Numbered from the stretch's first letter, positions 5,948 through 62,388 are shown. The stretch is 64,000 bases of DNA from an uncultured Pseudomonadales bacterium (GCA_964467735.1 CAYXSR010000001.1:23244-87243); one strand, 5' to 3'. The notes: generated by a model from the sequence alone, not told the origin. Translations and numbers: made by a program.

Positions 5948-6956
5948 TTTTCTTGAAGTCAGAGAAGCGAAAATTGGAAAGGTAAAATTCCTCAAAAATA
6001 ATTTTAAAGGTCAGTAATGCGGGAATCGCTAAAACTGCACCACCAACACTTCCTAATTTAAAACCAATCATCAAGGTAATAATTGTTATTAACGGATGTA
6101 AACCGATTGCTTTTTGCATTACTTTTGGAACAATAAAATTATTTTCTAACTGCTGGATTAAAAAATATAAAGCAATTACGGCAAATCCCATTGTTGGAGA
6201 ATAAGAAAAACCTACTAAAGCAGCCGGCACTGCAGAAACTGTCGGCCCAATATTAGGAATTAATTCAAGGATACCGGCAATAATTGCCAAAGGTAAAGCA
6301 AAATTAATAGACAACAATCTTAGACCAATGTAAGACATTAAACCAATTATAAACATCAAAAATATTTCTCCTCTAACCCATCCACCAAGTTTTCTTTCAA
6401 ACTTTTCTATCAACTCCTCTATATCTCTATCCTCTTTATTAGAAAATAAAATTTTTAAATACTTTTTAAGGTTTTTTCTTTCCATTAAAAAATAATAATT
6501 AATAACTGCAAAAGCAAAAATTTTAACAATATTAGAAAAAGTAGAAACAATTATTTTTATAATATTTCCTGGTAACTTAGCTAATTCACTACTATAATCT
6601 TTCCATTGAAAATCTATTGTTTGAAACAAGCCATTCTTGGCAAAACCATTGATAAATTCAGGAAAATATTTTAAAAGAGCACTTATTTGAGACACAACGG
6701 CCGGAATAAGAGATATTAAAGAACCAATAAGAAAACCAAATAAAATTATATAAACAATGAATATTGCTACCCCACGAGGAATTTTAAGCTTTTCCATTCG
6801 ATTAATAATTGGTGATAAAGCTGAACTAAAAATTATTGACACAAATAATAGAAGAATTATCTCTCTAATCTGAAAAAGTAACCAAAGAAAAATTAGAAAA
6901 AAAATAGTAAAGATAATAGTTTTACGGGAAATCGCTATTCTTCTAAGACGTATCAT
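5934..6956 (-). CDS. AI-2E family transporter (PerM/UPF0118-like permease)
   Basis: 340 aa, about 8 TM helices. N-terminal and central region pattern typical of PF01594 proteins. Confidence 0.65.
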   Translation of the reverse strand: MIRLRRIAISRKTIIFTIFFLIFLWLLFQIREIILLLFVSIIFSSALSPIINRMEKLKIPRGVAIFIVYIILFGFLIGSLISLIPAVVSQISALLKYFPEFINGFAKNGLFQTIDFQWKDYSSELAKLPGNIIKIIVSTFSNIVKIFAFAVINYYFLMERKNLKKYLKILFSNKEDRDIEELIEKFERKLGGWVRGEIFLMFIIGLMSYIGLRLLSINFALPLAIIAGILELIPNIGPTVSAVPAALVGFSYSPTMGFAVIALYFLIQQLENNFIVPKVMQKAIGLHPLITIITLMIGFKLGSVGGAVLAIPALLTFKIIFEEFYLSNFRFSDFKKNLGS

Positions 6957-7056
6957 TTATAGGTTAGATGAATTTTAATGTCTGATGAAAGAATATCAGA
7001 GGTTTTAATCTTCTGTCAAGACAACAATTAAGATTTTGAGTCACTGAGGATAAAAA

Positions 7057-8133
7057 TCATTTTTGATTAATAAGTTTATTTAAAATTTCCCGACGTCTTT
7101 TCTTTTCAACAAAAGGAATATTGTCTTCAAGCCTATAAGCTGCTGTTCCGGGTCTTGGAGAATATTTAGCAATATAAGCTAAACAAAATCCTATTTGCTT
7201 ACAAAGTTTAACTGTATTTTCAAACTGTTTTTTTGTCTCCCCAGGAAAACCAACAATGATATCGGTACCTATTTCAATATCGGGAATTTCTTTTTTAATT
7301 TTCTTTACTAATTTCAAATATTGTTCAGAGGTATATTTACGATTCATTTTCTTTAAAATCTCATCGTCTCCAGATTGCACTGGTAAATGTAAATAACGTT
7401 CTATCTTAGGTAACTTTAAGACCTGAATAATACCATTTGATAAATCATGAGGGTTTGAAGTAAAAAATTTAATTTTCTTAAGACCCTTAATTTCGTTTAA
7501 CAAGGACAAAAGAATAGCAAAGTTATTTTTATATCTTTTTTTCAATTCTTCAATTTTTTCCTGTAATAATTTATTTTTTACTTTTATGTCTGAATTTTTA
7601 TGATAACTATTAACATTCTGACCTAATAAAGTAATCTCTTTAATCCCTCTTTTAACAATCATTTTAACTTCACAAAGAATTTCTTCTATTGGTCGTGATT
7701 TTTCTCGGCCACGCGAAAATGGAACAACACAATAAGAACAAAGATTATTACATCCTTCCATTATTTGAACCCAAGCATGTTTTTTATTTTTCCGCTGCGG
7801 GTCTAAGCTGCTATTTATTAATCTTTTTAAAGGACTAAATTGAACGTTCTTTGGAAATTCTTTTTTTAACCATTCTTTATCATGATATAAAATACAACCA
7901 GTAATAATAATTTGTTTTTGTTTTTTAGTCTTTTGCAGATTTCTTATTGCTCCCAAAACTTTGTCTTCTGCGGCTCGTCTAACTGAACAAGTATTTATTA
8001 TCACTAAATCTGCTTTCTGCTTAGTGGAGGCTAATTGATATCCTTTTTTACGAAAATAAGCGGCGATTCGCTCTGAATCTGCCTCGTTCGCTTGACAACC
8101 AAAAGTAATAATAAAATAGTGTTTGTTTTTCAT
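7057..8133 (-). CDS. radical-SAM methylthiotransferase (MiaB/RimO/MtaB family), apparently lacking the C-terminal TRAM domain
   Basis: N-terminal MTTase domain FGCQANEADSE. Radical SAM CxxxCxxC is CNNLCSYCVVP. Only 358 aa. Confidence 0.75.
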   Translation of the reverse strand: MKNKHYFIITFGCQANEADSERIAAYFRKKGYQLASTKQKADLVIINTCSVRRAAEDKVLGAIRNLQKTKKQKQIIITGCILYHDKEWLKKEFPKNVQFSPLKRLINSSLDPQRKNKKHAWVQIMEGCNNLCSYCVVPFSRGREKSRPIEEILCEVKMIVKRGIKEITLLGQNVNSYHKNSDIKVKNKLLQEKIEELKKRYKNNFAILLSLLNEIKGLKKIKFFTSNPHDLSNGIIQVLKLPKIERYLHLPVQSGDDEILKKMNRKYTSEQYLKLVKKIKKEIPDIEIGTDIIVGFPGETKKQFENTVKLCKQIGFCLAYIAKYSPRPGTAAYRLEDNIPFVEKKRRREILNKLINQK

Positions 8134-8216
8134 AGTTCACTTATTTTAGCAAATTTAAGACAAAAATGGTTCTTTTTTTACTCAAAAATCGCTCTAAATG
8201 TTAAAATATCAATATT

Positions 8217-9305
8217 ATGAAAATAATTGAGCTCAGAAGATTAACTGCTGAAAAAATTATTGATCTGGCTGTCAAGACTTTAAAAAAGGGCGGTTTAGTT
8301 ATTTATCCCACCGAGACTTGCTATGGTATTGGTGCTGATGCCACTAACCATGCCAGTATTGATAAATTAATTAAATATAAAGGTGAAAGAAAAAATAAAC
8401 CAATTTCAGTAATCGTAGCTAATAAAAAAATGGCTCAAGAGTATGTTTTTATTAATAAAACTGCTGATAACTTATACAAAAATTTTCTTCCTGGAGCATT
8501 AACGGTTGTATCAAAAGGAAAACATAAAGTAGATTTCCGCTTAGAATCAAAAGAAGGAAATCTTGGAATTCGTATTCCCAAAAATAAGATCGTTTTGGGG
8601 ATAACCAAAAAGTTTGGAAAACCAATCACCGCTACTTCTGCCAATATTTCTAATGAAAAAACTCCTTACCAAATAAGCGACATTTTAGACTCTTTATCAC
8701 TTAAGAAAAAAAATCTTATTGATCTCATTATTGATTCTGGAAAACTTCCCAAAAATCCACCCTCTACAGTCGTGGATACAACTTTAAATGACATTAACGT
8801 TATCCGTCAGGGAACTATTAATTTCGACAAACAATCAACAAAAAGTATTATTACTAAATCTGAGATAGAAACAAGAAAATTTGCTCAAAACTTAATGACA
8901 AATTACTTCAAATATTTAAATTCTTATTGTATTATCTTTGCTCTACAAGGAGAATTAGGAAGTGGTAAAACTCAATTTTGTAAGGGGATTGGTCAATTTT
9001 TAAAGATAAAATATCCAATCACTTCTCCGACTTTTATTTTATTAAAAGAATATCAATTTAATTTTAAAAATAAGAAAAAATTTTTCTACCATATTGATAC
9101 TTGGCGAATAAAAAATGATGATGAATTAGGAGAAATTGGTTTAAAAAAAATGATTAAACCAGGCAATATTATTGCCATTGAATGGCTTCAAAAAGCAAAA
9201 ACTTTTTTAGATAATTTCAAGAAACGTAACAAAGTAAAAATTATTTGGTTAGAAATAAAATACGGTAATAAATTAAACCAAAGAAAAATTAAATATTATG
9301 AATAG
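8217..9305 (+). CDS. fusion protein: threonylcarbamoyl-AMP synthase TsaC (Sua5/YrdC domain) + t6A ATPase TsaE (YjeE)
   Basis: N-terminal half has YrdC motifs YPTETCYGIG and ATSAN. C-terminal ~140 aa has TsaE motifs GELGSGKTQF (Walker A), SPTFIL and HIDTWR. Confidence 0.8.
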   Translation: MKIIELRRLTAEKIIDLAVKTLKKGGLVIYPTETCYGIGADATNHASIDKLIKYKGERKNKPISVIVANKKMAQEYVFINKTADNLYKNFLPGALTVVSKGKHKVDFRLESKEGNLGIRIPKNKIVLGITKKFGKPITATSANISNEKTPYQISDILDSLSLKKKNLIDLIIDSGKLPKNPPSTVVDTTLNDINVIRQGTINFDKQSTKSIITKSEIETRKFAQNLMTNYFKYLNSYCIIFALQGELGSGKTQFCKGIGQFLKIKYPITSPTFILLKEYQFNFKNKKKFFYHIDTWRIKNDDELGEIGLKKMIKPGNIIAIEWLQKAKTFLDNFKKRNKVKIIWLEIKYGNKLNQRKIKYYE

Positions 9306-10353
9306 TATAAAAATTTTAGCTATCGACACGTCTTGTGACGAAACTTCAGCTGCTGTTACTTTTAGTGATAAAGTAATGAGTAATATTGTCTGGTCACAAA
9401 TAGAAATCCATAAAACATGGGGTGGTGTTGTTCCTCATTTAGCAAAAAGAGCTCATCAAGAAAGAATTGATAATGTAGTAAAAAATGCACTTAAAAAAGC
9501 AAAGATAAGTTTGAACGAAATTGATTGCTTTGCCGTTACTCAAGGACCTGGATTAGCTCCAGCTTTAGAAGTAGGTATTAAAAAAGCAAAAGATTTGGCC
9601 TTAAAATTTAAAAAGCCATTAATTGCCATAAATCATATGGAAGGTCATCTTTTATCATGTTTTGCTAAAAACAGTAAAGGAAATAATTATTTACCAAAAA
9701 CTAAGATTGAATTTCCAATTCTAGGATTACTCATTTCTGGTGGACATACCCAATTAGTTTTAATGAAAAATTTTGGTCAATATAAAATTTTAGGAGAAAC
9801 ATTAGATGATGCGGCTGGGGAGGCTTTTGATAAAGTAGCTAAAATGCTTAACTTAGGTTATCCTGGAGGTCCAATAATCGAACAACTAGCTAAACAAGGC
9901 AATCCTCATAAATTTAATTTCCCCTTTCCTATGTCTCGACATCCTGGCTTAAACTTCAGCTTTTCTGGACTAAAAACCGCTTGTCTTTATCAATTAAGAA
10001 AAATTCCAGAAAAAAATAAAACAAAAGAATTTTTAGCAGATTTTAGCGCTTCTTTTCAATTTGCTTTAACTAAATCAATTACGATTAAGTTAAAAATTGC
10101 TCTTAAAAATTATCAACCTACAATGTTAGTTTTAGGCGGAGGAGTTATTAGTAATTTTTTCGTAAGAAGAAAAGTCAGACAAACAGCTAAGAAATATTCT
10201 GTCCCTGTTTTTATTCCATATAGTAAAAAATTACTAACTGATAATGCTGCTATGATTGGGATCACTGCTTTTTATAAATCAAAACGGAAACAATTTATTA
10301 AAAATATTGAAAAACTAGATCGACTTCCCAATTTGAATTTTAACTCTTTATAA
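9298..10353 (+). CDS. tsaD: tRNA N6-adenosine threonylcarbamoyltransferase TsaD (Kae1/Gcp family)
   Basis: ILAIDTSCDETSAAV N-terminus. HMEGHL metal-binding motif. Confidence 0.9.
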   Translation: MNSIKILAIDTSCDETSAAVTFSDKVMSNIVWSQIEIHKTWGGVVPHLAKRAHQERIDNVVKNALKKAKISLNEIDCFAVTQGPGLAPALEVGIKKAKDLALKFKKPLIAINHMEGHLLSCFAKNSKGNNYLPKTKIEFPILGLLISGGHTQLVLMKNFGQYKILGETLDDAAGEAFDKVAKMLNLGYPGGPIIEQLAKQGNPHKFNFPFPMSRHPGLNFSFSGLKTACLYQLRKIPEKNKTKEFLADFSASFQFALTKSITIKLKIALKNYQPTMLVLGGGVISNFFVRRKVRQTAKKYSVPVFIPYSKKLLTDNAAMIGITAFYKSKRKQFIKNIEKLDRLPNLNFNSL

Positions 10354-10355
10354 TT

Positions 10356-11177
10356 TTACTTTTCTAAAACTATTTCTATTTCTTTTTTAAGTTGATTAAT
10401 TTTATTTTTAGGAATCAATGTTTTTAAATTAGTAAAATTTAATATATCTCGACAAGAAACAATTCCCCTTCCTAAAAGCATTTCTCTATCTTGCTTTGAT
10501 AATGATGATAAACAAGTAATTGGATATAAACCACTTTTCTCCACCAAAGATTGTAAACTCCACTCCTTTTGATAATTCCACCCAATGGCTTTAATACCAA
10601 CACAATTACAATACTTAATTGCTTTTGATGTTAATTTTGTATTAGTTACTAACCACATTTGATTAATATTATTTGTCTTAAAAATATTAATCTTTGTTAA
10701 TTTAATATCTAAAAATCGGGCATAAACATATAAGGCAGTTTTAACATCTGTTTTTATACCCTGTTTGTTATGAAATTTAGCCTCAATTGCAAAAAGATCG
10801 TTTTCTTTCTGAGCAAGAATATCGATTTCGTGACTAATACATTTTCCTTTAACATAATAGGAAACTTTTGTTTTAAATCCACTGGTATTAAGTATTTTGG
10901 CAAAGAAATTTTCAAAAGGGTAACCAGATGGCCCTAAAGCCATTATTGCCTGTTTTAAATTATAACGAGATGAAAGAAAAGGTCGTTTTTTATCTAGTAA
11001 TTGGGCAACTATTTTATATATCTCTTTGGTGGAGATACCATCGTAAAGATATTGTTTCAGTTCTTTGATAATATCTTTTCTTATATTTTTATCAATGCCG
11101 GATGCTGTTAAAGAATTATTTACTTTATTCTCGGAGAAAGGCTCTAACAAGCCATTAGCTTTCAAAACACTAATCAT
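10356..11177 (-). CDS. ATP-cone domain fused to a restriction-endonuclease-like (Mrr_cat, PD-(D/E)xK) domain
   Basis: N-terminal ~90 aa resembles the ATP-cone (ISVLKANGLLEPFSENKV...ISTKEIYKIVAQLL). Central region has FE...HEIDIL...FAIEAKF, matching the Mrr catalytic core D...(D/E)xK. Followed by a ~90-aa C-terminal region with conserved Cys. Confidence 0.6.
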   Translation of the reverse strand: MISVLKANGLLEPFSENKVNNSLTASGIDKNIRKDIIKELKQYLYDGISTKEIYKIVAQLLDKKRPFLSSRYNLKQAIMALGPSGYPFENFFAKILNTSGFKTKVSYYVKGKCISHEIDILAQKENDLFAIEAKFHNKQGIKTDVKTALYVYARFLDIKLTKINIFKTNNINQMWLVTNTKLTSKAIKYCNCVGIKAIGWNYQKEWSLQSLVEKSGLYPITCLSSLSKQDREMLLGRGIVSCRDILNFTNLKTLIPKNKINQLKKEIEIVLEK

Positions 11178-11233
11178 ATAAATTATTATAAACTCCTTTT
11201 ATGAGAAAACCTAGAATTCCTCTGATTTACAGA

Positions 11234-11431
11234 TTAATTATGACATCCTGGGCAAGATGAACAACACCCACCACATGAAGAACCATTAGAAAAAAAAGAA
11301 TCAAATACTTGAGTGATTTTCTTACTTTTACAATGAGGGCAAGTAACTTCCTTATTCTCTTTTTCTTTAAGATTTAATTCAAGATTAAATTTCTTCTTGC
11401 AATTATCACAAGAAAAACTATATGTTGGCAT
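11234..11431 (-). CDS. FmdB-family zinc-ribbon protein with Cys-rich C-terminal tail
   Basis: CDNC...CPHC zinc ribbon, then GSSCGGCCSSCPGC. Confidence 0.55.
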   Translation of the reverse strand: MPTYSFSCDNCKKKFNLELNLKEKENKEVTCPHCKSKKITQVFDSFFSNGSSCGGCCSSCPGCHN

Positions 11432-11494
11432 AGTTTATATCTTAATACAAAAACTTTCTTCTTGCAATTTCTTCATTAAAATTACCAACCAGAA

Positions 11495-12007
11495 TTATTG
11501 ACCTTGTCCGCTCATCATCTCCTCTATCGTCATAAAGTTAACATTATTGGGCAAATCAAATCTAGAATCAAGAATAACTGCTGGTACACAATTATATTGC
11601 ATGTCGCTAGGTGGCGCCCCACTATTCTCTGTACTTTCTGATTCCCACCAATCTTCATCTGTATCTTCAAAACAAGTTTTCATTCCCTGTGGACTAACTT
11701 TATCCCATACCCACATACAATTTTCTTTCATTAATAAAAATCCTTCTTTACCTTCTTGATTCATTTCGGCATAATAATTTTTTCCTTCTATATAACCAGT
11801 TCCAAAAAATTTATCATCTTTTTTCCAAGTACATTTAAAAGGAACTCCTTTCATTATTGCCTCTTTTAGAGTACCACTAAAACTTTCTTGTTTTTTATCT
11901 GGCGATTCTGAACCTTCATTCTTTTTTGAAGAGAGACTACATCCGCTTAATAAGAAAAAAGTTAAAAGAACTATAGAAACTAAAATAATTTTTTTCAATT
12001 TAATCAC
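11495..12007 (-). CDS. secreted lipoprotein of unknown function (Trp/Cys/acidic-rich)
   Basis: Signal peptide with lipobox LLSGC. Mature part has 4 Cys and many Trp/Asp/Glu. Confidence 0.5.
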   Translation of the reverse strand: MIKLKKIILVSIVLLTFFLLSGCSLSSKKNEGSESPDKKQESFSGTLKEAIMKGVPFKCTWKKDDKFFGTGYIEGKNYYAEMNQEGKEGFLLMKENCMWVWDKVSPQGMKTCFEDTDEDWWESESTENSGAPPSDMQYNCVPAVILDSRFDLPNNVNFMTIEEMMSGQGQ

Positions 12008-12021
12008 CTCCCTAGATAATA

Positions 12022-14556
12022 TTAATTAATTTTTAAATTTTTTCCATTCCTTCCATTATCTGAAATTTTAAAAAACATTAATTTAACTAATTCAGTTACT
12101 ACAAAATAACTCACTACTAATCCTAATATTATTGTTAATTGTCTTGATTGAGGAGAAATGAAACTAAAAACTTTTTGTCCTTCAGGGAGAAGAGGCAAGC
12201 CAATGGTTAACAGAGCAGCAAGACTAATAAACCCACCTAAAATTAAAGAAGGTGATTTTGCTTTCAAAAAGAACAGTCTAGTTCTAATTGAAAAAATGAA
12301 AACTAGCTCTGTTAAAATACTTTCCATATACCAACTAGTCTGTAAAAACTTAGTCGACCATTTAGAAAAAATAGCAAAGGTTATAAAGTCGAAACCACTG
12401 CTTACTAAACCCAAAACCACCACTAAATATAAAATCGATTTAAGATCATAACTCTGAGGTTTCTTTACCTCAGTTTCGTCAACATTATCACTCGCAATCG
12501 CAATCATGGGAAAATCAGATAAAAGATTAACTAACAATATCTGGGTAGGTAACATTGGTAAAACGTTTATCATTAAAGAAGCCGCTGCTACAGCATAAAA
12601 ATTACCGAAATTTGCTGATAGACTAGCGATAATATATTTAGTAGTATTCACAAAAATCTCCCTACCTTCTTTTATTCCATCAATAATTATCTTTAAGTCT
12701 TTTCTCAATAAAATAATATCAGCAGCTTCTCTAGAAACATCGGTAGCCTCTTGAACTGCTAAAGCCACATTTGCTAATTTTAAAGCTGGGGCATCATTAA
12801 TCCCATCACCTAAAAACCCAACCTTATATTTCTTCTGTAAAGATTGAATAATTTCATATTTTTGTTGTGGGGAAACTCTAGCAAAAACTTTACATGACTC
12901 AATAAACTTTTGGCGTTTCTGAAAAGATAGTTTATCTAACTCGCTCCCTGTTATTATTTCTTTTTGATCGCTAATTAATCCAATATTATTAGCTACTGCT
13001 TGAGCAATCTCTTTTCTGTCTCCGGTTAGAATCTTAATTGTTATACCTAATTTTTGAGCTTTTTCAACTGCCTCATTAACACTTTTTTTAATCGGATCAA
13101 CAAAGGAAATTAAACCGATACATTTCAATTCCTTTTCTGCTTTTTTTAAATCAGAAGGTTTTTTAGTTAAGGTCCCTTTAGCAATTGCCCAAACTCTTTT
13201 TCCTTCAATTCCTTTTTCAACCATCCATTTTTCTAATATCTTTTTTTCTTTAGAGGACAGTTTACATAACTCTATTATTGTCTCTGGTGCTCCTCTAGTT
13301 ATTACTTCATATTTTTCTCTTCTTTCCAGTAGGGTTGTATCTCTTTTTCTTTCTGGATCAAAAGGAATATTTTCCTGTTTTTTATATTCTAAAAGAGTTT
13401 TCTTCTTTTCTAATTTTCTTTCTAAAATTGCAATGTCAAATGGGTTTGTTAATTCTTTTTTTTCAGAAAGAAATGAGCTACCCAAACAGGCATAAAAAAC
13501 TGGATCTTCTTTGTATAAAGAAAAAGTTTCTGAGACTTTCATGCTATTTTCTGTTAACGTTCCTGTCTTATCAGTACAAAGTACTTCTATTCCTCCGAGG
13601 TCTTCAACAGCGGCTAATCTTTTTACTATGACATGTTTCTTTGCCAATTTTAAAGCTCCTCTTGAAAAAGCAAAAGTTGTAACTACCGGTAGAGCTTCAG
13701 GAATTGCGCTTACCACTAGAGCAATAGAAAAGAGCGTTAAATCTCCTATGTTCACTTCAAGTCCTTTCACTAATAAGTTCCCAAAAAACATCAAGACGAT
13801 TGTTACAATAACTAAACGTAGGATAAATTTACTAAATTTGGCAATCTCTTTTTCAAAAATACTTTTTCTAGCAGTTTCTCCAGTAAGTTTAGCAATGTTC
13901 CCTAGGACAGTATCCTTGCCAGTCGTTACTACCAAGCCTAACCCTTTTCCTCTCACGACTGTAGTGCCTGAAAAAACCATATTAGTCGCTTGATGAACTT
14001 CTTTCGCTTTATTGTCCAAAACATCATCTGTTTTTTCAATCGTAACTGATTCTCCTGTTAATAAAGACTCGTCTAATGCTAAACTTTTGGCTTGTAATAA
14101 TCTCATATCAGCTGGAACAATATTTCCTGGTTCTAAAATAACCACATCTCCTATCACCAACTCTTCACTGCTAATTTCTGTTTCTGCGTCATCTCTTTTA
14201 ACCTTTATTTTCTTAGTTAAGTGTTTCTTTAAAAGTTTCACTGCCTTCTCAGATTGATATTCCTGGTAAAAACCCAACACTGTATTAATAAATACAAACA
14301 ACATAATCATCGCTGAATCCCAATACTCTCTTAATAAGAAAGCAAGAACTGAGGCACCTAAAAGAAGATAAATAAATGAGGATTTAAGCTGACGAAGTAA
14401 AATATTCCAGATTCCTTTTTCTTTAATAGAGAACTTATTTGAACCATTCTTTTTTAATCTATCTTGAGCTTCTTGATTAGTTAACCCTTCTAAACTGCTT
14501 GCAAGTTCTCTTATAATCTCTTCTGATTTTCTAGAAACATATTTAGCAAAATCCAT
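12022..14556 (-). CDS. cation-transporting P-type ATPase (type II/III, Ca2+/Mg2+-like; no heavy-metal CPx motif)
   Basis: TGES, PEAL, the DKTGTLT phosphorylation site, TGD, GDGINDAPAL. 844 aa with 8-10 TM helices. Confidence 0.85.
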   Translation of the reverse strand: MDFAKYVSRKSEEIIRELASSLEGLTNQEAQDRLKKNGSNKFSIKEKGIWNILLRQLKSSFIYLLLGASVLAFLLREYWDSAMIMLFVFINTVLGFYQEYQSEKAVKLLKKHLTKKIKVKRDDAETEISSEELVIGDVVILEPGNIVPADMRLLQAKSLALDESLLTGESVTIEKTDDVLDNKAKEVHQATNMVFSGTTVVRGKGLGLVVTTGKDTVLGNIAKLTGETARKSIFEKEIAKFSKFILRLVIVTIVLMFFGNLLVKGLEVNIGDLTLFSIALVVSAIPEALPVVTTFAFSRGALKLAKKHVIVKRLAAVEDLGGIEVLCTDKTGTLTENSMKVSETFSLYKEDPVFYACLGSSFLSEKKELTNPFDIAILERKLEKKKTLLEYKKQENIPFDPERKRDTTLLERREKYEVITRGAPETIIELCKLSSKEKKILEKWMVEKGIEGKRVWAIAKGTLTKKPSDLKKAEKELKCIGLISFVDPIKKSVNEAVEKAQKLGITIKILTGDRKEIAQAVANNIGLISDQKEIITGSELDKLSFQKRQKFIESCKVFARVSPQQKYEIIQSLQKKYKVGFLGDGINDAPALKLANVALAVQEATDVSREAADIILLRKDLKIIIDGIKEGREIFVNTTKYIIASLSANFGNFYAVAAASLMINVLPMLPTQILLVNLLSDFPMIAIASDNVDETEVKKPQSYDLKSILYLVVVLGLVSSGFDFITFAIFSKWSTKFLQTSWYMESILTELVFIFSIRTRLFFLKAKSPSLILGGFISLAALLTIGLPLLPEGQKVFSFISPQSRQLTIILGLVVSYFVVTELVKLMFFKISDNGRNGKNLKIN

Positions 14557-15103: not shown

Positions 15104-15177
15104 GGTGCGCCTGCTTGGATTCGAACCAAGGACATCTACTTTATAAGAGTAGCGCTCTACCACTGAGCTACAGGCGC
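15104..15177 (-). tRNA. tRNA with anticodon UAU (tRNA-Ile, AUA decoder)
   Basis: Reverse complement folds as a canonical cloverleaf: GCGCCTG acceptor, AGTGGTA D-loop, TTCGAAT T-loop. Anticodon stem CTACT/AGTAG with loop C-U-UAU-A-A. Promoter immediately upstream. Confidence 0.75.
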
Positions 15178-18638: not shown

Positions 18639-20150
18639 CTACTTTGCCACTTCATTTATTCTAAGCTCTCTAATAACATTTACTTTTATTTGTCCTGGAT
18701 AAGTAAGTTCTTTCTCTAATTTTTCTTTTAAATCGTGGGCTAACTTAATTGTTTCTGTATCATTTACTTTTTCAGGATTAACAATCACTCTAACTTCACG
18801 TCCTGCTTGAATTGCAAAAGCATTTTGAACACCCTTAAATGTTTTAGCTGCATCTTCTATTTTCTTCAAGCGAGTTACATATTCTTCATAATCTTCATAT
18901 CGGGCACCAGGTCGACTACCAGAGATAGCATCAGCAATATAAACTAATATTGATTCTTTTGAGGAAAACGGTCTATCTTGATGATGTTCTGCTACACAAG
19001 CAATAACATCTTCTGGAATATTATACTTTCGCAAAAATTCAATTGCTACTTGAACATGAGTTCCTTCCTCCTCAGTTATAACCTTACCAATATCGTGAAG
19101 TAAACAACCTAATCTTACAATATTAACATTAGCTCCAACCTCATAGGCCAATTTTGTACCAATTTTTGTTTCTTCTAAAGTATGAGCAATCATATTTTGA
19201 CCATATGAGAAACGATATTTGAAACGACCTAACATTGCAATGATCTCTCTTGGTAAATTATAAACTTTAACTCTATGACATAAATCCTCTCCAGATTTAT
19301 ACATAATTTTTTCGATATCTTGTTTTGCTTTCTTGACAACTTCTTCTACTCTTGATGGTTGAATCCTTCCATCAATAATAAGTGTCTCTAGAGCTACTCT
19401 TGCTACCTCTCTTCTTACTGAATCAAAACTAGAAAGTCTAATTACTCCCTCTTCGTCTAAATCAACATCAACTCCAGTAACTTTTTCAAAAGTGCGAATA
19501 TTCCGACCTTCTTTACCAATTATTCTTCCTTTCATCTCTTCATCAGGAAGTTTAACCGTAGAAACAGTGTATTCTGGAACATAATCTGTAGCCCCATGCT
19601 TCATAGCATCAACTAGAATTTCTTTTGCCTTTACATCTGCTTCTTCTTTGGCTTTTTCTTCTGATTCTCTAATCTTCCGAGCAATTTCCGCTTGTAATTT
19701 ATTTTCCGTTGCTTCCAAAATTAATTTTTTCGCTTCTTCTCTTGTTAAATTAGCAGCTTTTTCTAATCTCTCTATTTGTTTTCGTTTTATTTTATCTAAC
19801 TCGCTTAATCTTCTTCTTAATTCACTTTCTCTTTTTTTCAATAAATTTTCTCTCTCTTCGATTGCCCCTGTTCTTCTGTCTATTTCAGCTTCTTTCTTAT
19901 CAAGTGTTTCTTTTAATTCAATTACTTCCTTCTGAATTTCTTTAGCTTTTATATCCGCTTCTCTTTTTATCTCAAAAGCTTTATCTTTCGCTTCTAAAAT
20001 AATTTCTCTAGCTTTAGTTTGAGTTAATTCTAATGATTTCTGAGAAATAACTGCTTTTTTTGGAAAAAAAGCTGAGGTTTTTTTCTTTATCTCTTTAGTT
20101 TCTTTTTTGCCATCACGAACCAGAAACGATAATCGATTTAAAAAAGACAT
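18639..20150 (-). CDS. rny: ribonuclease Y (N-terminal TM/coiled coil + KH + HD domains)
   Basis: KH motif IIGKEGRNIR. HD motif LLHDIGK. Long coiled-coil N-terminal region. Confidence 0.85.
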   Translation of the reverse strand: MSFLNRLSFLVRDGKKETKEIKKKTSAFFPKKAVISQKSLELTQTKAREIILEAKDKAFEIKREADIKAKEIQKEVIELKETLDKKEAEIDRRTGAIEERENLLKKRESELRRRLSELDKIKRKQIERLEKAANLTREEAKKLILEATENKLQAEIARKIRESEEKAKEEADVKAKEILVDAMKHGATDYVPEYTVSTVKLPDEEMKGRIIGKEGRNIRTFEKVTGVDVDLDEEGVIRLSSFDSVRREVARVALETLIIDGRIQPSRVEEVVKKAKQDIEKIMYKSGEDLCHRVKVYNLPREIIAMLGRFKYRFSYGQNMIAHTLEETKIGTKLAYEVGANVNIVRLGCLLHDIGKVITEEEGTHVQVAIEFLRKYNIPEDVIACVAEHHQDRPFSSKESILVYIADAISGSRPGARYEDYEEYVTRLKKIEDAAKTFKGVQNAFAIQAGREVRVIVNPEKVNDTETIKLAHDLKEKLEKELTYPGQIKVNVIRELRINEVAK

Positions 20151-61053: not shown

Positions 61054-62388
61054 TTATTTTACTATAAATTTTCCTCTGTTTAAAAATTCTAATCTTTTAC
61101 CCTCCTCTAATAAAATTACATCTCTCTCCTGATATCCCATTTTTTGAGCTATCTTACTGTAGGAATACATATGTCGATAATCTCCTCCTATAGGAAGTAA
61201 ATATTTTGCTTTTATCAAAAACAAAAGCATTCTAATATCACCACTGGCACCATGTCCCGAAACATAAAGATTTTCTTGAGTTTCATAATAATGAATATTC
61301 ACTTTTCTCTTTGATAAATTATCGATTAATGTATTGACATCAATAATAACTCCCGGAGGAGAAGGATCAGCAGAAAATATTACCGTATCACCCATACCTA
61401 ATTTAACAAGTCTATGTTTGTCTCGACTAATTCTGTCTAAAGCTGAACCTTTTTGACCGTAACTTCCGGCAGCAATAACGGTAATTTTGTTTCTGGCTGA
61501 TTTCTTAATTCTAAAAGGCTTAATGAAATGTTTTTTTAGAGAATGGAAATAACCTAATTTTCTGCCAATCTCTACTGACTGTTCCATTGACTTTCCTAAA
61601 AATACTATTTTACGACCAGTATTAATTGAAGCAACTACTGCTTGCTTAATACGAGAAATATTGGAGGTTACGGTAGTAACTAATACTAATCCTTTTGCTT
61701 TGTGCATAATATTAGTAAAATTCTCTTCAATATTTGCTTCTGATTTCGTGTAACCTGTTTTTGTTGATCCTAAACAATCAGAAAGAAGTAATAGTGGCGG
61801 CTGTTTTCTACTAAGAAAAGCAACTTGATGGATATCAAACGGCCGATCATCAAATGGGGTAAAATCAAATTTATAATCAGCAACATGAAAAATATTTCCT
61901 ATTGGACTTTCAATAAAAAGACCTAAGCTTTCCGGAACTGAATGATTAATATGAAAAGCAGTCACTTTAAAGTCTCTAAAGAAAATTGTCGATCTTTTTT
62001 CGGTAAAATTAATAAATTCTAAGTTTTTAAGCGATAGACCAAAATCCTCTACTTTTGATTTAATAAACTCCTCAGCTAACTTAGAACTAAAAATAGGAAT
62101 ACTAGCATTACTTTTAGAAAAAAAGTGGGGAATTGCTCCATAATGATCAAAGTGGGCATGAGTAACAAAAAGCCCTTTTATTTTATGTCTTCTTTTAAGA
62201 AGATAACTAAAATCTGGGATGAAAAGTTCTTCTTGATTGGCATTCGGTTCATCGGGAAATCCTATTCCACAATCAACAATAATTATTTCTTTTTCTGTTT
62301 CGTAAACAAACATATTTTTTGTTACCGCTCCCACACCACCTAAGGGAATTATTTTTAACTTATTCATTGGTTTTTTAAAATCTTTCAT
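61054..62388 (-). CDS. rnj: ribonuclease J-like (metallo-beta-lactamase + beta-CASP), lacking the C-terminal domain
   Basis: IIPLGGVGAVTKNMFV, HAHFDHYGAIP. 444 aa. Confidence 0.75.
   Translation of the reverse strand: MKDFKKPMNKLKIIPLGGVGAVTKNMFVYETEKEIIIVDCGIGFPDEPNANQEELFIPDFSYLLKRRHKIKGLFVTHAHFDHYGAIPHFFSKSNASIPIFSSKLAEEFIKSKVEDFGLSLKNLEFINFTEKRSTIFFRDFKVTAFHINHSVPESLGLFIESPIGNIFHVADYKFDFTPFDDRPFDIHQVAFLSRKQPPLLLLSDCLGSTKTGYTKSEANIEENFTNIMHKAKGLVLVTTVTSNISRIKQAVVASINTGRKIVFLGKSMEQSVEIGRKLGYFHSLKKHFIKPFRIKKSARNKITVIAAGSYGQKGSALDRISRDKHRLVKLGMGDTVIFSADPSPPGVIIDVNTLIDNLSKRKVNIHYYETQENLYVSGHGASGDIRMLLFLIKAKYLLPIGGDYRHMYSYSKIAQKMGYQERDVILLEEGKRLEFLNRGKFIVK

Follow-up and report, generated by a model that had tools for sequence, protein, structure and literature searches.

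An ATP-cone joined to an AF1548-type PD-(D/E)xK core: a widespread family of candidate adenine-nucleotide-regulated nucleases

To our knowledge, ATP-cones are understood solely as regulators of deoxyribonucleoside triphosphate (dNTP) synthesis, in the ribonucleotide reductases (RNRs) and in NrdR. A crystal structure of an AF1548-type nuclease core has been available since 2004. Here we describe a gene that joins these two parts in a 64,000-nt stretch of DNA from an uncultured Pseudomonadales bacterium (GCA_964467735.1, CAYXSR010000001.1:23244-87243), called the window below; its product is referred to as the query. The closest described relative of its core is AF1548 of Archaeoglobus fulgidus (PDB 1Y88; Mrr_cat plus AF1548-like_C, COG1787), which, unlike the query, has no ATP-cone: the alignment begins at chain residue 22 of AF1548 and at residue 90 of the query. 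AF1548 is a structural-genomics protein known from its structure alone, and it therefore offers no functional precedent. Its nuclease activity was predicted from the structure (PMC1821046, PMC1874628), and a census of PD-(D/E)xK proteins placed it with Mrr_cat/COG1787 (PMC3424549); an ATP-cone fusion is not mentioned in any of these three papers.

Three other groups of proteins resemble the query in part. NrdR has a Zn-ribbon reader and a C-terminal cone, whereas the query has an N-terminal cone and a nuclease/helix-hairpin-helix (HhH)-like output. NrdR also regulates nrd operons, whereas no nrd genes were seen among the neighbour clusters of the 78 homologous loci described below. Mrr of E. 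coli, the type IV/Mrr_cat enzymes, MspJI and AspBHI have Mrr_cat and PD-(D/E)xK chemistry in common with the query, but they carry a Mrr_N winged helix or an SRA-like reader in place of the ATP-cone, and their defence-island or mobile context is not that of the query family. Pfam matched neither a Mrr_N nor an SRA-like domain to the query, even at E<=1, and it found no Zn-ribbon. The CARF/SAVED-nuclease effectors (Can2, Card1, Cdn1, Cap4) offer an analogy, in that they sense cyclic oligonucleotides where an ATP-cone would sense metabolic ATP or deoxyadenosine triphosphate (dATP). They occur in a CRISPR or CBASS context, whereas no cas or CD-NTase genes were seen beside members of the query family. 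The PADLOC matches of the query were weak (E=4.5e-5 to 2.4e-3) and covered mainly the linker and the nuclease region, not a CARF fold. Without a reader domain or a defence context the query is no Mrr-type restriction enzyme, and without a Zn-ribbon it is no NrdR; nor is it a CARF/SAVED effector.

The gene is a complete open reading frame (ORF) (Table 1), and a protein in public assemblies (P0001) is identical to its product. Three Pfam domains score above their gathering thresholds: the ATP-cone (PF03477; residues 3-61, 28.9 bits against 25.8, E=1.7e-6), Mrr_cat (PF04471; residues 84-190, 22.0 bits against 21, E=1.9e-4) and AF1548-like_C (residues 218-271, 29.6 bits against 23.9, E=7.6e-7). 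The single PDB chain found by sequence search was 1Y88 (E=1.4e-34, residues 90-248). The ORF translation contains the motifs F88-E89, H116-E-I-D119-I-L and F129-A-I-E132-A-K134-F, all of which had been quoted in an initial annotation made from the DNA (FE...HEIDIL...FAIEAKF). These results bear out the architecture proposed there, an ATP-cone followed by a Mrr-like PD-(D/E)xK core and an extra C-terminal module. The proposed architecture is real, far beyond chance, and, judged by score, predicted fold and conserved residues, the protein belongs to the ATP-cone and Mrr_cat/AF1548 families. The architecture is already present in databases by name: a PF03477 match is precomputed for most of the 120 closest homologues, and the RefSeq product name is 'ATP cone domain-containing protein'. 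A curated family for the query was not found in NCBIfam, where the cone matches were all below threshold. The gene therefore adds a member to a known uncharacterised family.

An AlphaFold2 model calculated from a 20-sequence alignment had a mean predicted local distance difference test score (pLDDT) of 92 and a predicted template-modelling score (pTM) of 0.86. In the model, residues 1-80 form a beta-hairpin and four helices, residues 86-203 an alpha-beta-beta-beta-alpha-beta core, and residues 204-273 a helical domain, and the catalytic residues fall in the helix 87-98 and the strands 115-124 and 127-134. Conservation was examined in the 120 closest homologues and in 151 representatives of 50%-identity clusters; the counts given here refer to the latter set. 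E89, D119 and K134 are present in all 151 representatives and E132 in 150, so that the catalytic residues on which the initial annotation had staked its proposal are conserved. The counterparts of D119, E132 and K134 in 1Y88 are D38, E51 and K53. E117 is likewise invariant (151/151) and, together with R154, D157, N179 and W200, belongs to the further positions conserved in at least 97% of representatives; C113 and C192, both inside the nuclease core, are also conserved. The hinge between cone and core, L81-G82-P83-x-G85-x-P87-F88-E89, is almost invariant, with G82, P83, G85, F88 and E89 at or above 97%, and it is the block of lowest model confidence in the body of the protein (pLDDT 79). It would couple the cone with the nuclease. 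The C-terminal module, initially described as Cys-containing, proved to be an AF1548-like_C, HhH-like helical domain, which probably binds the DNA backbone. A Cys-rich metal module at this end was ruled out, because C222 (53/151), C242 (85/151) and position 271 are variable and the query showed neither a Zn nor an Fe-S motif.

The ATP-cone was compared with NrdR at the level of individual ligand contacts. A profile of the 86 N-terminal positions of the family, searched against the PDB, returned NrdR chains only (E=1.5e-3 to 2.3e-3). In E. coli NrdR, the inner-site nucleotide is held by V51, K53, E59, P60, F61, K65, L66, S105 and I108 (bioRxiv 10.1101/2025.03.28.645925), which align with family positions V/I4, K6, E12, P13, F14, K18, L/V19, T50 and I53, respectively. 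The query residues at these positions include V4, K6, E12, F14, K18, V19 and I53, and conservation is high for K6 (148/151) and K18 (146/151) and reaches 119/151 for E12. The family sequence K-A-S/N-G is compatible with nucleotide binding, since E. coli NrdR has K-S-N where many cones have K-R-D. In this alignment, the family retains the inner-site contact residues of NrdR. NrdR R72 touches the outer-site gatekeeper Tyr; the aligned family position 25 is Arg or Lys in 119/151 representatives, and this Arg is missing in the query, which has Ala there, as does a homologue 79% identical to it (P0002). Family Y72 aligns with NrdR F127 and not with the outer-site Tyr, Y131, in a part of the sequence where the end of the hidden Markov model alignment is ambiguous.

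The family is compact, uniform and widespread, and the query is an ordinary member of it. A word-indexed search found 2936 proteins at E<=1e-3. In an exhaustive search of 1.84 billion representatives, the number of clusters rose from 443 at E<=1e-30 to 786 at E<=1e-10 and 1091 at E<=1e-3. Lengths were between 263 and 299 aa in 149 of the best 150 clusters, with one exception at 335 aa, and the matches ran end to end, which indicates that the three-domain architecture is the standard form. At least 598 loci were confirmed in species-representative genomes; the best 80 of these represent, besides many lineages of Patescibacteria, the Bacteroidota, Anaerolineales, Parachlamydiales and two archaea. 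The family thus ranges over Patescibacteria, Bacteroidota, Chloroflexota, Chlamydiota and some archaea, and identity to the query across phyla is 37-55%.

The most reasonable molecular reading of these data is a candidate adenine-nucleotide-regulated nuclease, in line with the (d)NTP/ATP-regulated nuclease that the initial annotation had put forward, as the catalytic E/D/ExK and the NrdR contact residues are both conserved. More specifically, we favour an adenine-nucleotide-gated DNA endonuclease for nucleic-acid turnover or salvage, to which we assign a probability of about 50%. The N-terminal ATP-cone would bind adenine nucleotides, namely ATP or dATP and possibly ADP or AMP. The protein would be soluble. 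Its core, a Mg2+-dependent endonuclease from the clade of AF1548/COG1787 (Mrr_cat), would be joined to the cone through the Gly/Pro hinge, and the HhH-like domain would grip the nucleic-acid backbone without sequence specificity. All ATP-cones that we know to have been characterised, those of RNR and NrdR, act through a nucleotide-driven change in quaternary structure, PD-(D/E)xK nucleases usually require a defined dimer to cut duplex DNA, and the last cone helix leads via the hinge straight into the helix that bears the catalytic E89. For these reasons, we propose that occupancy of the cone gates cleavage: the bound nucleotide would set the oligomer or the hinge geometry and thereby turn the nuclease on or off. 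Control could run in either direction: ATP could switch cleavage on and dATP switch it off, as they do in RNR, or the nuclease could be activated when ATP is low. The outcome would be a controlled breakdown of DNA, and perhaps of RNA, for nucleotide or pentose salvage once energy or nucleotide pools drop. Domains, fold, conserved residues, distribution and gene contexts are observed, whereas we infer which ligand the cone binds, in which direction it regulates, what is cut and what the protein does in the cell.

The gene neighbourhoods of homologues were surveyed by calling ORFs mechanically in 80 loci, 78 of which carry the nuclease gene, and clustering the neighbours. Synteny around the gene differs by lineage. 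In Bacteroidota and Chlamydiota, the nuclease gene heads a four-gene module in which it is followed by genes for a beta-CASP/RMMBL hydrolase, an archaeal-type thymidine/AMP-phosphorylase-like protein of about 500 aa and a Prs-like ribose-phosphate diphosphokinase. The beta-CASP/RMMBL gene comes directly after the nuclease gene in 8 Bacteroidota loci (gaps of -17 to +33 nt), in several of which the phosphorylase and Prs-like genes come next; in a ninth, a P-type ATPase gene lies between the first two. The same order is kept on two plasmids, of Pontibacter (Bacteroidota) and Criblamydia (Chlamydiota), where the genes abut or overlap and are annotated as ATP cone protein, MBL fold metallo-hydrolase, thymidine phosphorylase family protein and ribose-phosphate pyrophosphokinase. 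NCBIfam placed the module phosphorylase above the cut-off for the archaeal-type group (NF003338, TIGR02645) and the kinase in the Prs subfamily NF005537; the hydrolase was nearest to RNA-cleaving beta-CASP enzymes (Cas14, aCPSF1), at scores below the cut-off.

The surroundings of the module include tandem universal stress protein (Usp) genes (16 in 8 loci) and genes for phosphofructokinase (PFK), alcohol dehydrogenase and sensor kinases. On the plasmids, the flanking genes encode a 2-hydroxyacid dehydrogenase or a cation P-type ATPase with phosphoketolase, GlgP and acetate kinase. This setting of Usp, P-type ATPase, PFK and acetate kinase genes resembles that of the hypoxia-induced lxa locus of Burkholderia cenocepacia, which holds Usp genes, a cation-transporting ATPase, a metal-dependent RNase, PFK and RNR and has been compared with the DosR regulon (PMC3721108). 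The module also contains a close relative of AMP phosphorylase, together with a phosphoribosyl pyrophosphate (PRPP)-synthetase-like enzyme and a beta-CASP RNase-type hydrolase; Candidate Phyla Radiation (CPR) bacteria operate an AMP-phosphorylase nucleoside pathway (PMC5113843). We know of no ATP-cone nuclease described in either the DosR/lxa loci or the archaeal and CPR AMP-phosphorylase pathway, and the link to them is absent from the window. We see in the module a possible unit for the catabolism of nucleotides or nucleic acids, as yet undescribed, within hypoxia- or stress-type loci.

A part in breaking down nucleic acids to recover nucleotides or pentose is suggested by the conserved module, by its fermentative and stress-related surroundings and by how common the family is in CPR bacteria, which use the AMP-phosphorylase pathway. 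This is the weakest step of our argument. In its fullest form, the cone would be an energy-charge or dATP switch on an undescribed catabolic route, from ATP-cone endonuclease through beta-CASP nuclease and AMP-phosphorylase-like to PRPP-synthetase-like enzyme, by which starving or hypoxic bacteria, nucleotide-auxotrophic CPR included, consume as fuel or recycle DNA and RNA, their own or imported; we put this forward as a speculation that is, on balance, improbable.

Several observations weigh against the gated DNA endonuclease and its role in salvage. The Mrr_cat score is marginal, 1 bit over the gathering threshold, and at two positions that are well conserved in the family the query has another residue, Ala for R25 and Gln for P203 (Pro in 147/151 representatives); these departures may, as far as the alignment goes, mean altered nucleotide discrimination in the query lineage. 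The module phosphorylase scores 476-506 bits, against an AMP_phos equivalog cut-off of 535. Module partners were not found in the 64-kb window by tblastn, save a weak beta-CASP match at 61900-62358, and the salvage module does not generally adjoin the nuclease gene in CPR loci. Neighbour counts are correlated by lineage and are not phylogenetically independent. Finally, the papers found on ATP-cone nucleases, AF1548 and 1Y88 yielded only fold-based predictions for 1Y88 and no biochemical study of any family member, AF1548 included, which agrees with the statement of the initial annotation that the function had not been characterised experimentally.

In the loci of CPR bacteria, other gene orders prevail. 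Paceibacteria-type loci have an rpoD-like gene, an unknown gene, mltG, mnmA and the nuclease gene in this order, often followed by MgtC (9 loci) or a Cas4-like PDDEXK_1 gene (about 10 loci), whereas in Microgenomates-type loci a DUF2079/LPG-synthase membrane protein precedes the nuclease gene and dinB is mostly convergent. The Pfam families among the 149 immediate neighbours were tRNA_Me_trans, DUF2079, beta-CASP/RMMBL, IMS, MgtC, E1-E2_ATPase, histidine kinases and Usp. Such neighbours are housekeeping genes that vary with lineage, among them mnmA, tsaD, dinB and the gene for the DUF2079 membrane protein. Levybacteria-type synteny is shared by twelve loci whose label, 'uncultured Gammaproteobacteria', may be wrong. 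Ten loci with such titles (L007, L010, L011, L013, L015, L016, L033, L045, L049, L060) show the DUF2079-nuclease order of Levybacteria/Microgenomates, several with dinB nearby, and they are probably mislabelled CPR bins.

Against this background, four other explanations were weighed, which we rank as repair, defence, RNA targeting and pure regulation. The first is a structure-specific DNA-repair or recombination nuclease tied to dNTP/ATP pools, so that cutting is coordinated with the capacity for repair synthesis. In NucS, Hjc and XPF/Mus81, too, modules of the DNA-binding or HhH kind accompany a PD-(D/E)xK core, but a fold like that of NucS and Hjc is shared throughout the superfamily. The dinB gene, mostly convergent and thus not co-transcribed, accompanies the nuclease gene in one lineage only, and recA, ruv, uvr or lig genes do not recur among the neighbours. 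We consider a repair nuclease unlikely, though the best placed of the four.

The second explanation is an anti-phage effector of a type IV-like or abortive-infection kind, held off by normal ATP/dATP and released when phage perturbs the pools, in analogy to the CARF/SAVED-nuclease effectors. The initial annotation had raised a defence role and suggested a survey of homologue neighbourhoods for defence islands; PADLOC revealed no recurrent defence, restriction-modification or methyltransferase genes among the 149 immediate neighbours. The PADLOC matches that did occur there were weak or cross-family, with QueC models on MnmA and Cas4 models on the PDDEXK_1 neighbour (4 loci). With tblastn, no copies were found in 50,697 phage genomes and only two in 72,556 plasmids, which carry the annotation 'ATP cone domain-containing protein'. 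The GC content of the gene (27-29%) is near that of its flanks (28-34%) and shows no anomaly. Uniform architecture and 37-55% identity across phyla are unlike fast-evolving defence genes, and the window gene lies amid core translation and tRNA-modification genes. A defence role is therefore not favoured; as the leading explanation it was rejected on the PADLOC, phage and plasmid results, and we regard it as quite unlikely. We see in it a chromosomal gene of housekeeping or stress that is passed on vertically, rather than a defence gene that moves between genomes.

According to the third explanation, the protein would be an RNA- or tRNA-directed nuclease working with enzymes of tRNA modification or RNA turnover. 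The tsaD gene adjoins the nuclease gene convergently in the window and lies directly upstream and co-directional in the closest genome locus, from Saccharibacteria (L002). In addition, mnmA is upstream in 21 CPR loci, in 9 of them directly and co-directionally (gaps of -31 to +50 nt), and the beta-CASP hydrolase that is the module partner in Bacteroidota is of the RNA type and has an RMMBL domain. However, closeness to tRNA-related genes may be mere synteny of tiny genomes, HhH domains and the AF1548/Mrr_cat relatives are DNA-oriented, and Pfam detected no RNA-binding domain in the query, which leaves this explanation very unlikely. The last, a non-catalytic nucleotide-sensing DNA-binding regulator analogous to NrdR, can draw on a cone that is closest to that of NrdR in sequence and structure and on the occasional recruitment of PD-(D/E)xK folds as DNA binders, but it is scarcely credible given essentially invariant catalytic residues, which point to enzymatic selection, the missing Zn-ribbon and the lack of nrd association in 78 loci.

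The coordinates of the gene and of the features around it are collected in Table 1.

Table 1. Positions of the nuclease gene, its parts and neighbouring features in the window, and of the four-gene module in homologous loci.
Feature	Position	Strand	Remarks
ATP-cone/AF1548-type PD-(D/E)xK nuclease gene	10356..11177	-	Complete ATG-to-stop ORF, 273 codons plus stop at 10356-10358
ATP-cone domain, residues 1-80	10938..11177	-	Beta-hairpin lid (3-5, 11-13) and four helices
Hinge L81-G-P-S-G-Y-P-F-E89	10911..10937	-	Connects last cone helix with first catalytic residue
PD-(D/E)xK nuclease core, residues 86-203	10569..10922	-	
Catalytic codons	E89 10911-10913, D119 10821-10823, E132 10782-10784, K134 10776-10778	-	Checked on DNA
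C-terminal helical AF1548-like_C domain, residues 204-273	10359..10568	-	Helix-hairpin-helix-like
TsaC-TsaE fusion (Sua5/YrdC + TsaE, one ORF)	8217-9305	+	Pfam E=2e-46 and 1e-26
tsaD	9298-10353	+	Convergent; 2 nt between its stop and the end of the nuclease gene
FmdB-family zinc-ribbon, 65 aa	11234-11431	-	TIGR02605, E=3.7e-12; 56 nt upstream of nuclease gene
170-aa ORF, lipoprotein-like signal (LSGC)	11495-12007	-	Between P-type ATPase and Zn-ribbon gene
P-type ATPase, closest to Mg2+/H+ types	12022-14556	-	Family scan
tRNA-Ile, anticodon TAT (UAU)	15104-15177	-	ARAGORN
RNase Y	18639-20150	-	TIGR03319, 529 bits; 7.5 kb from nuclease gene
Four-gene module, other loci	L082 1972-6597; L083 8001-12608; L014, L063, L071, L077 around 6000-10650		

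The initial annotation had described the gene as standing alone and convergent with tsaD. The convergent arrangement was confirmed, but the gene does not stand alone: it closes a co-directional run of four, after the P-type ATPase, the lipoprotein-like ORF and the FmdB zinc-ribbon. The 170-aa lipoprotein-like ORF had no Pfam or NCBIfam match. The FmdB-family protein ends in an extra Cys-rich tail, GSSCGGCCSSCPGCHN, and its arrangement with the nuclease gene is repeated on an independent Logan contig (L001). A promoter and terminator scan of 10000-12200 gave matches at shuffle level in this DNA of 27-31% GC. P-type ATPases, Mg2+/H+-like in the window and heavy-metal or Ca-type elsewhere, lie within 6 kb of the nuclease gene in 15 of the 78 loci from several phyla, a possible enrichment, and MgtC lies near it in nine (L021, L031, L032, L034, L041, L048, L054, L062, L066). 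These recurring cation-transport neighbours may reflect shared stress islands or a link between Mg2+ and ATP.

The window is core genome, with the TsaC-TsaE fusion, a MiaB-like gene and RNase Y confirmed by family scans; a ribosomal-protein cluster and rpoB/rpoC were placed at 23-50 kb from ORF sizes and order alone. The TsaC-TsaE fusion ORF and the start of tsaD share 8 nt, which makes a compact operon for the synthesis of N6-threonylcarbamoyladenosine (t6A), in which the fusion is unusual. Most bacteria decode AUA with a lysidine-modified CAU tRNA, and the tRNA-Ile(UAU) of the window may allow tilS-independent decoding. A 444-aa ORF at 61054-62388 (minus strand) is weakly similar (tblastn, E=5e-5) to the beta-CASP hydrolase of the Bacteroidota module.

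The interest of these results lies in the family rather than in the window locus. The family is a conserved single architecture that wires an ATP-cone sensor to a nuclease, and it is common in CPR bacteria, whose ultra-small members cannot make nucleotides. If the proposed gating is true, control by an ATP-cone would be shown for the first time for an enzyme outside ribonucleotide reduction. The identity of the ligand and the substrate would extend ATP-cone allostery to nucleic-acid breakdown, and it could explain how such organisms balance the turnover of DNA and RNA against their nucleotide pools.
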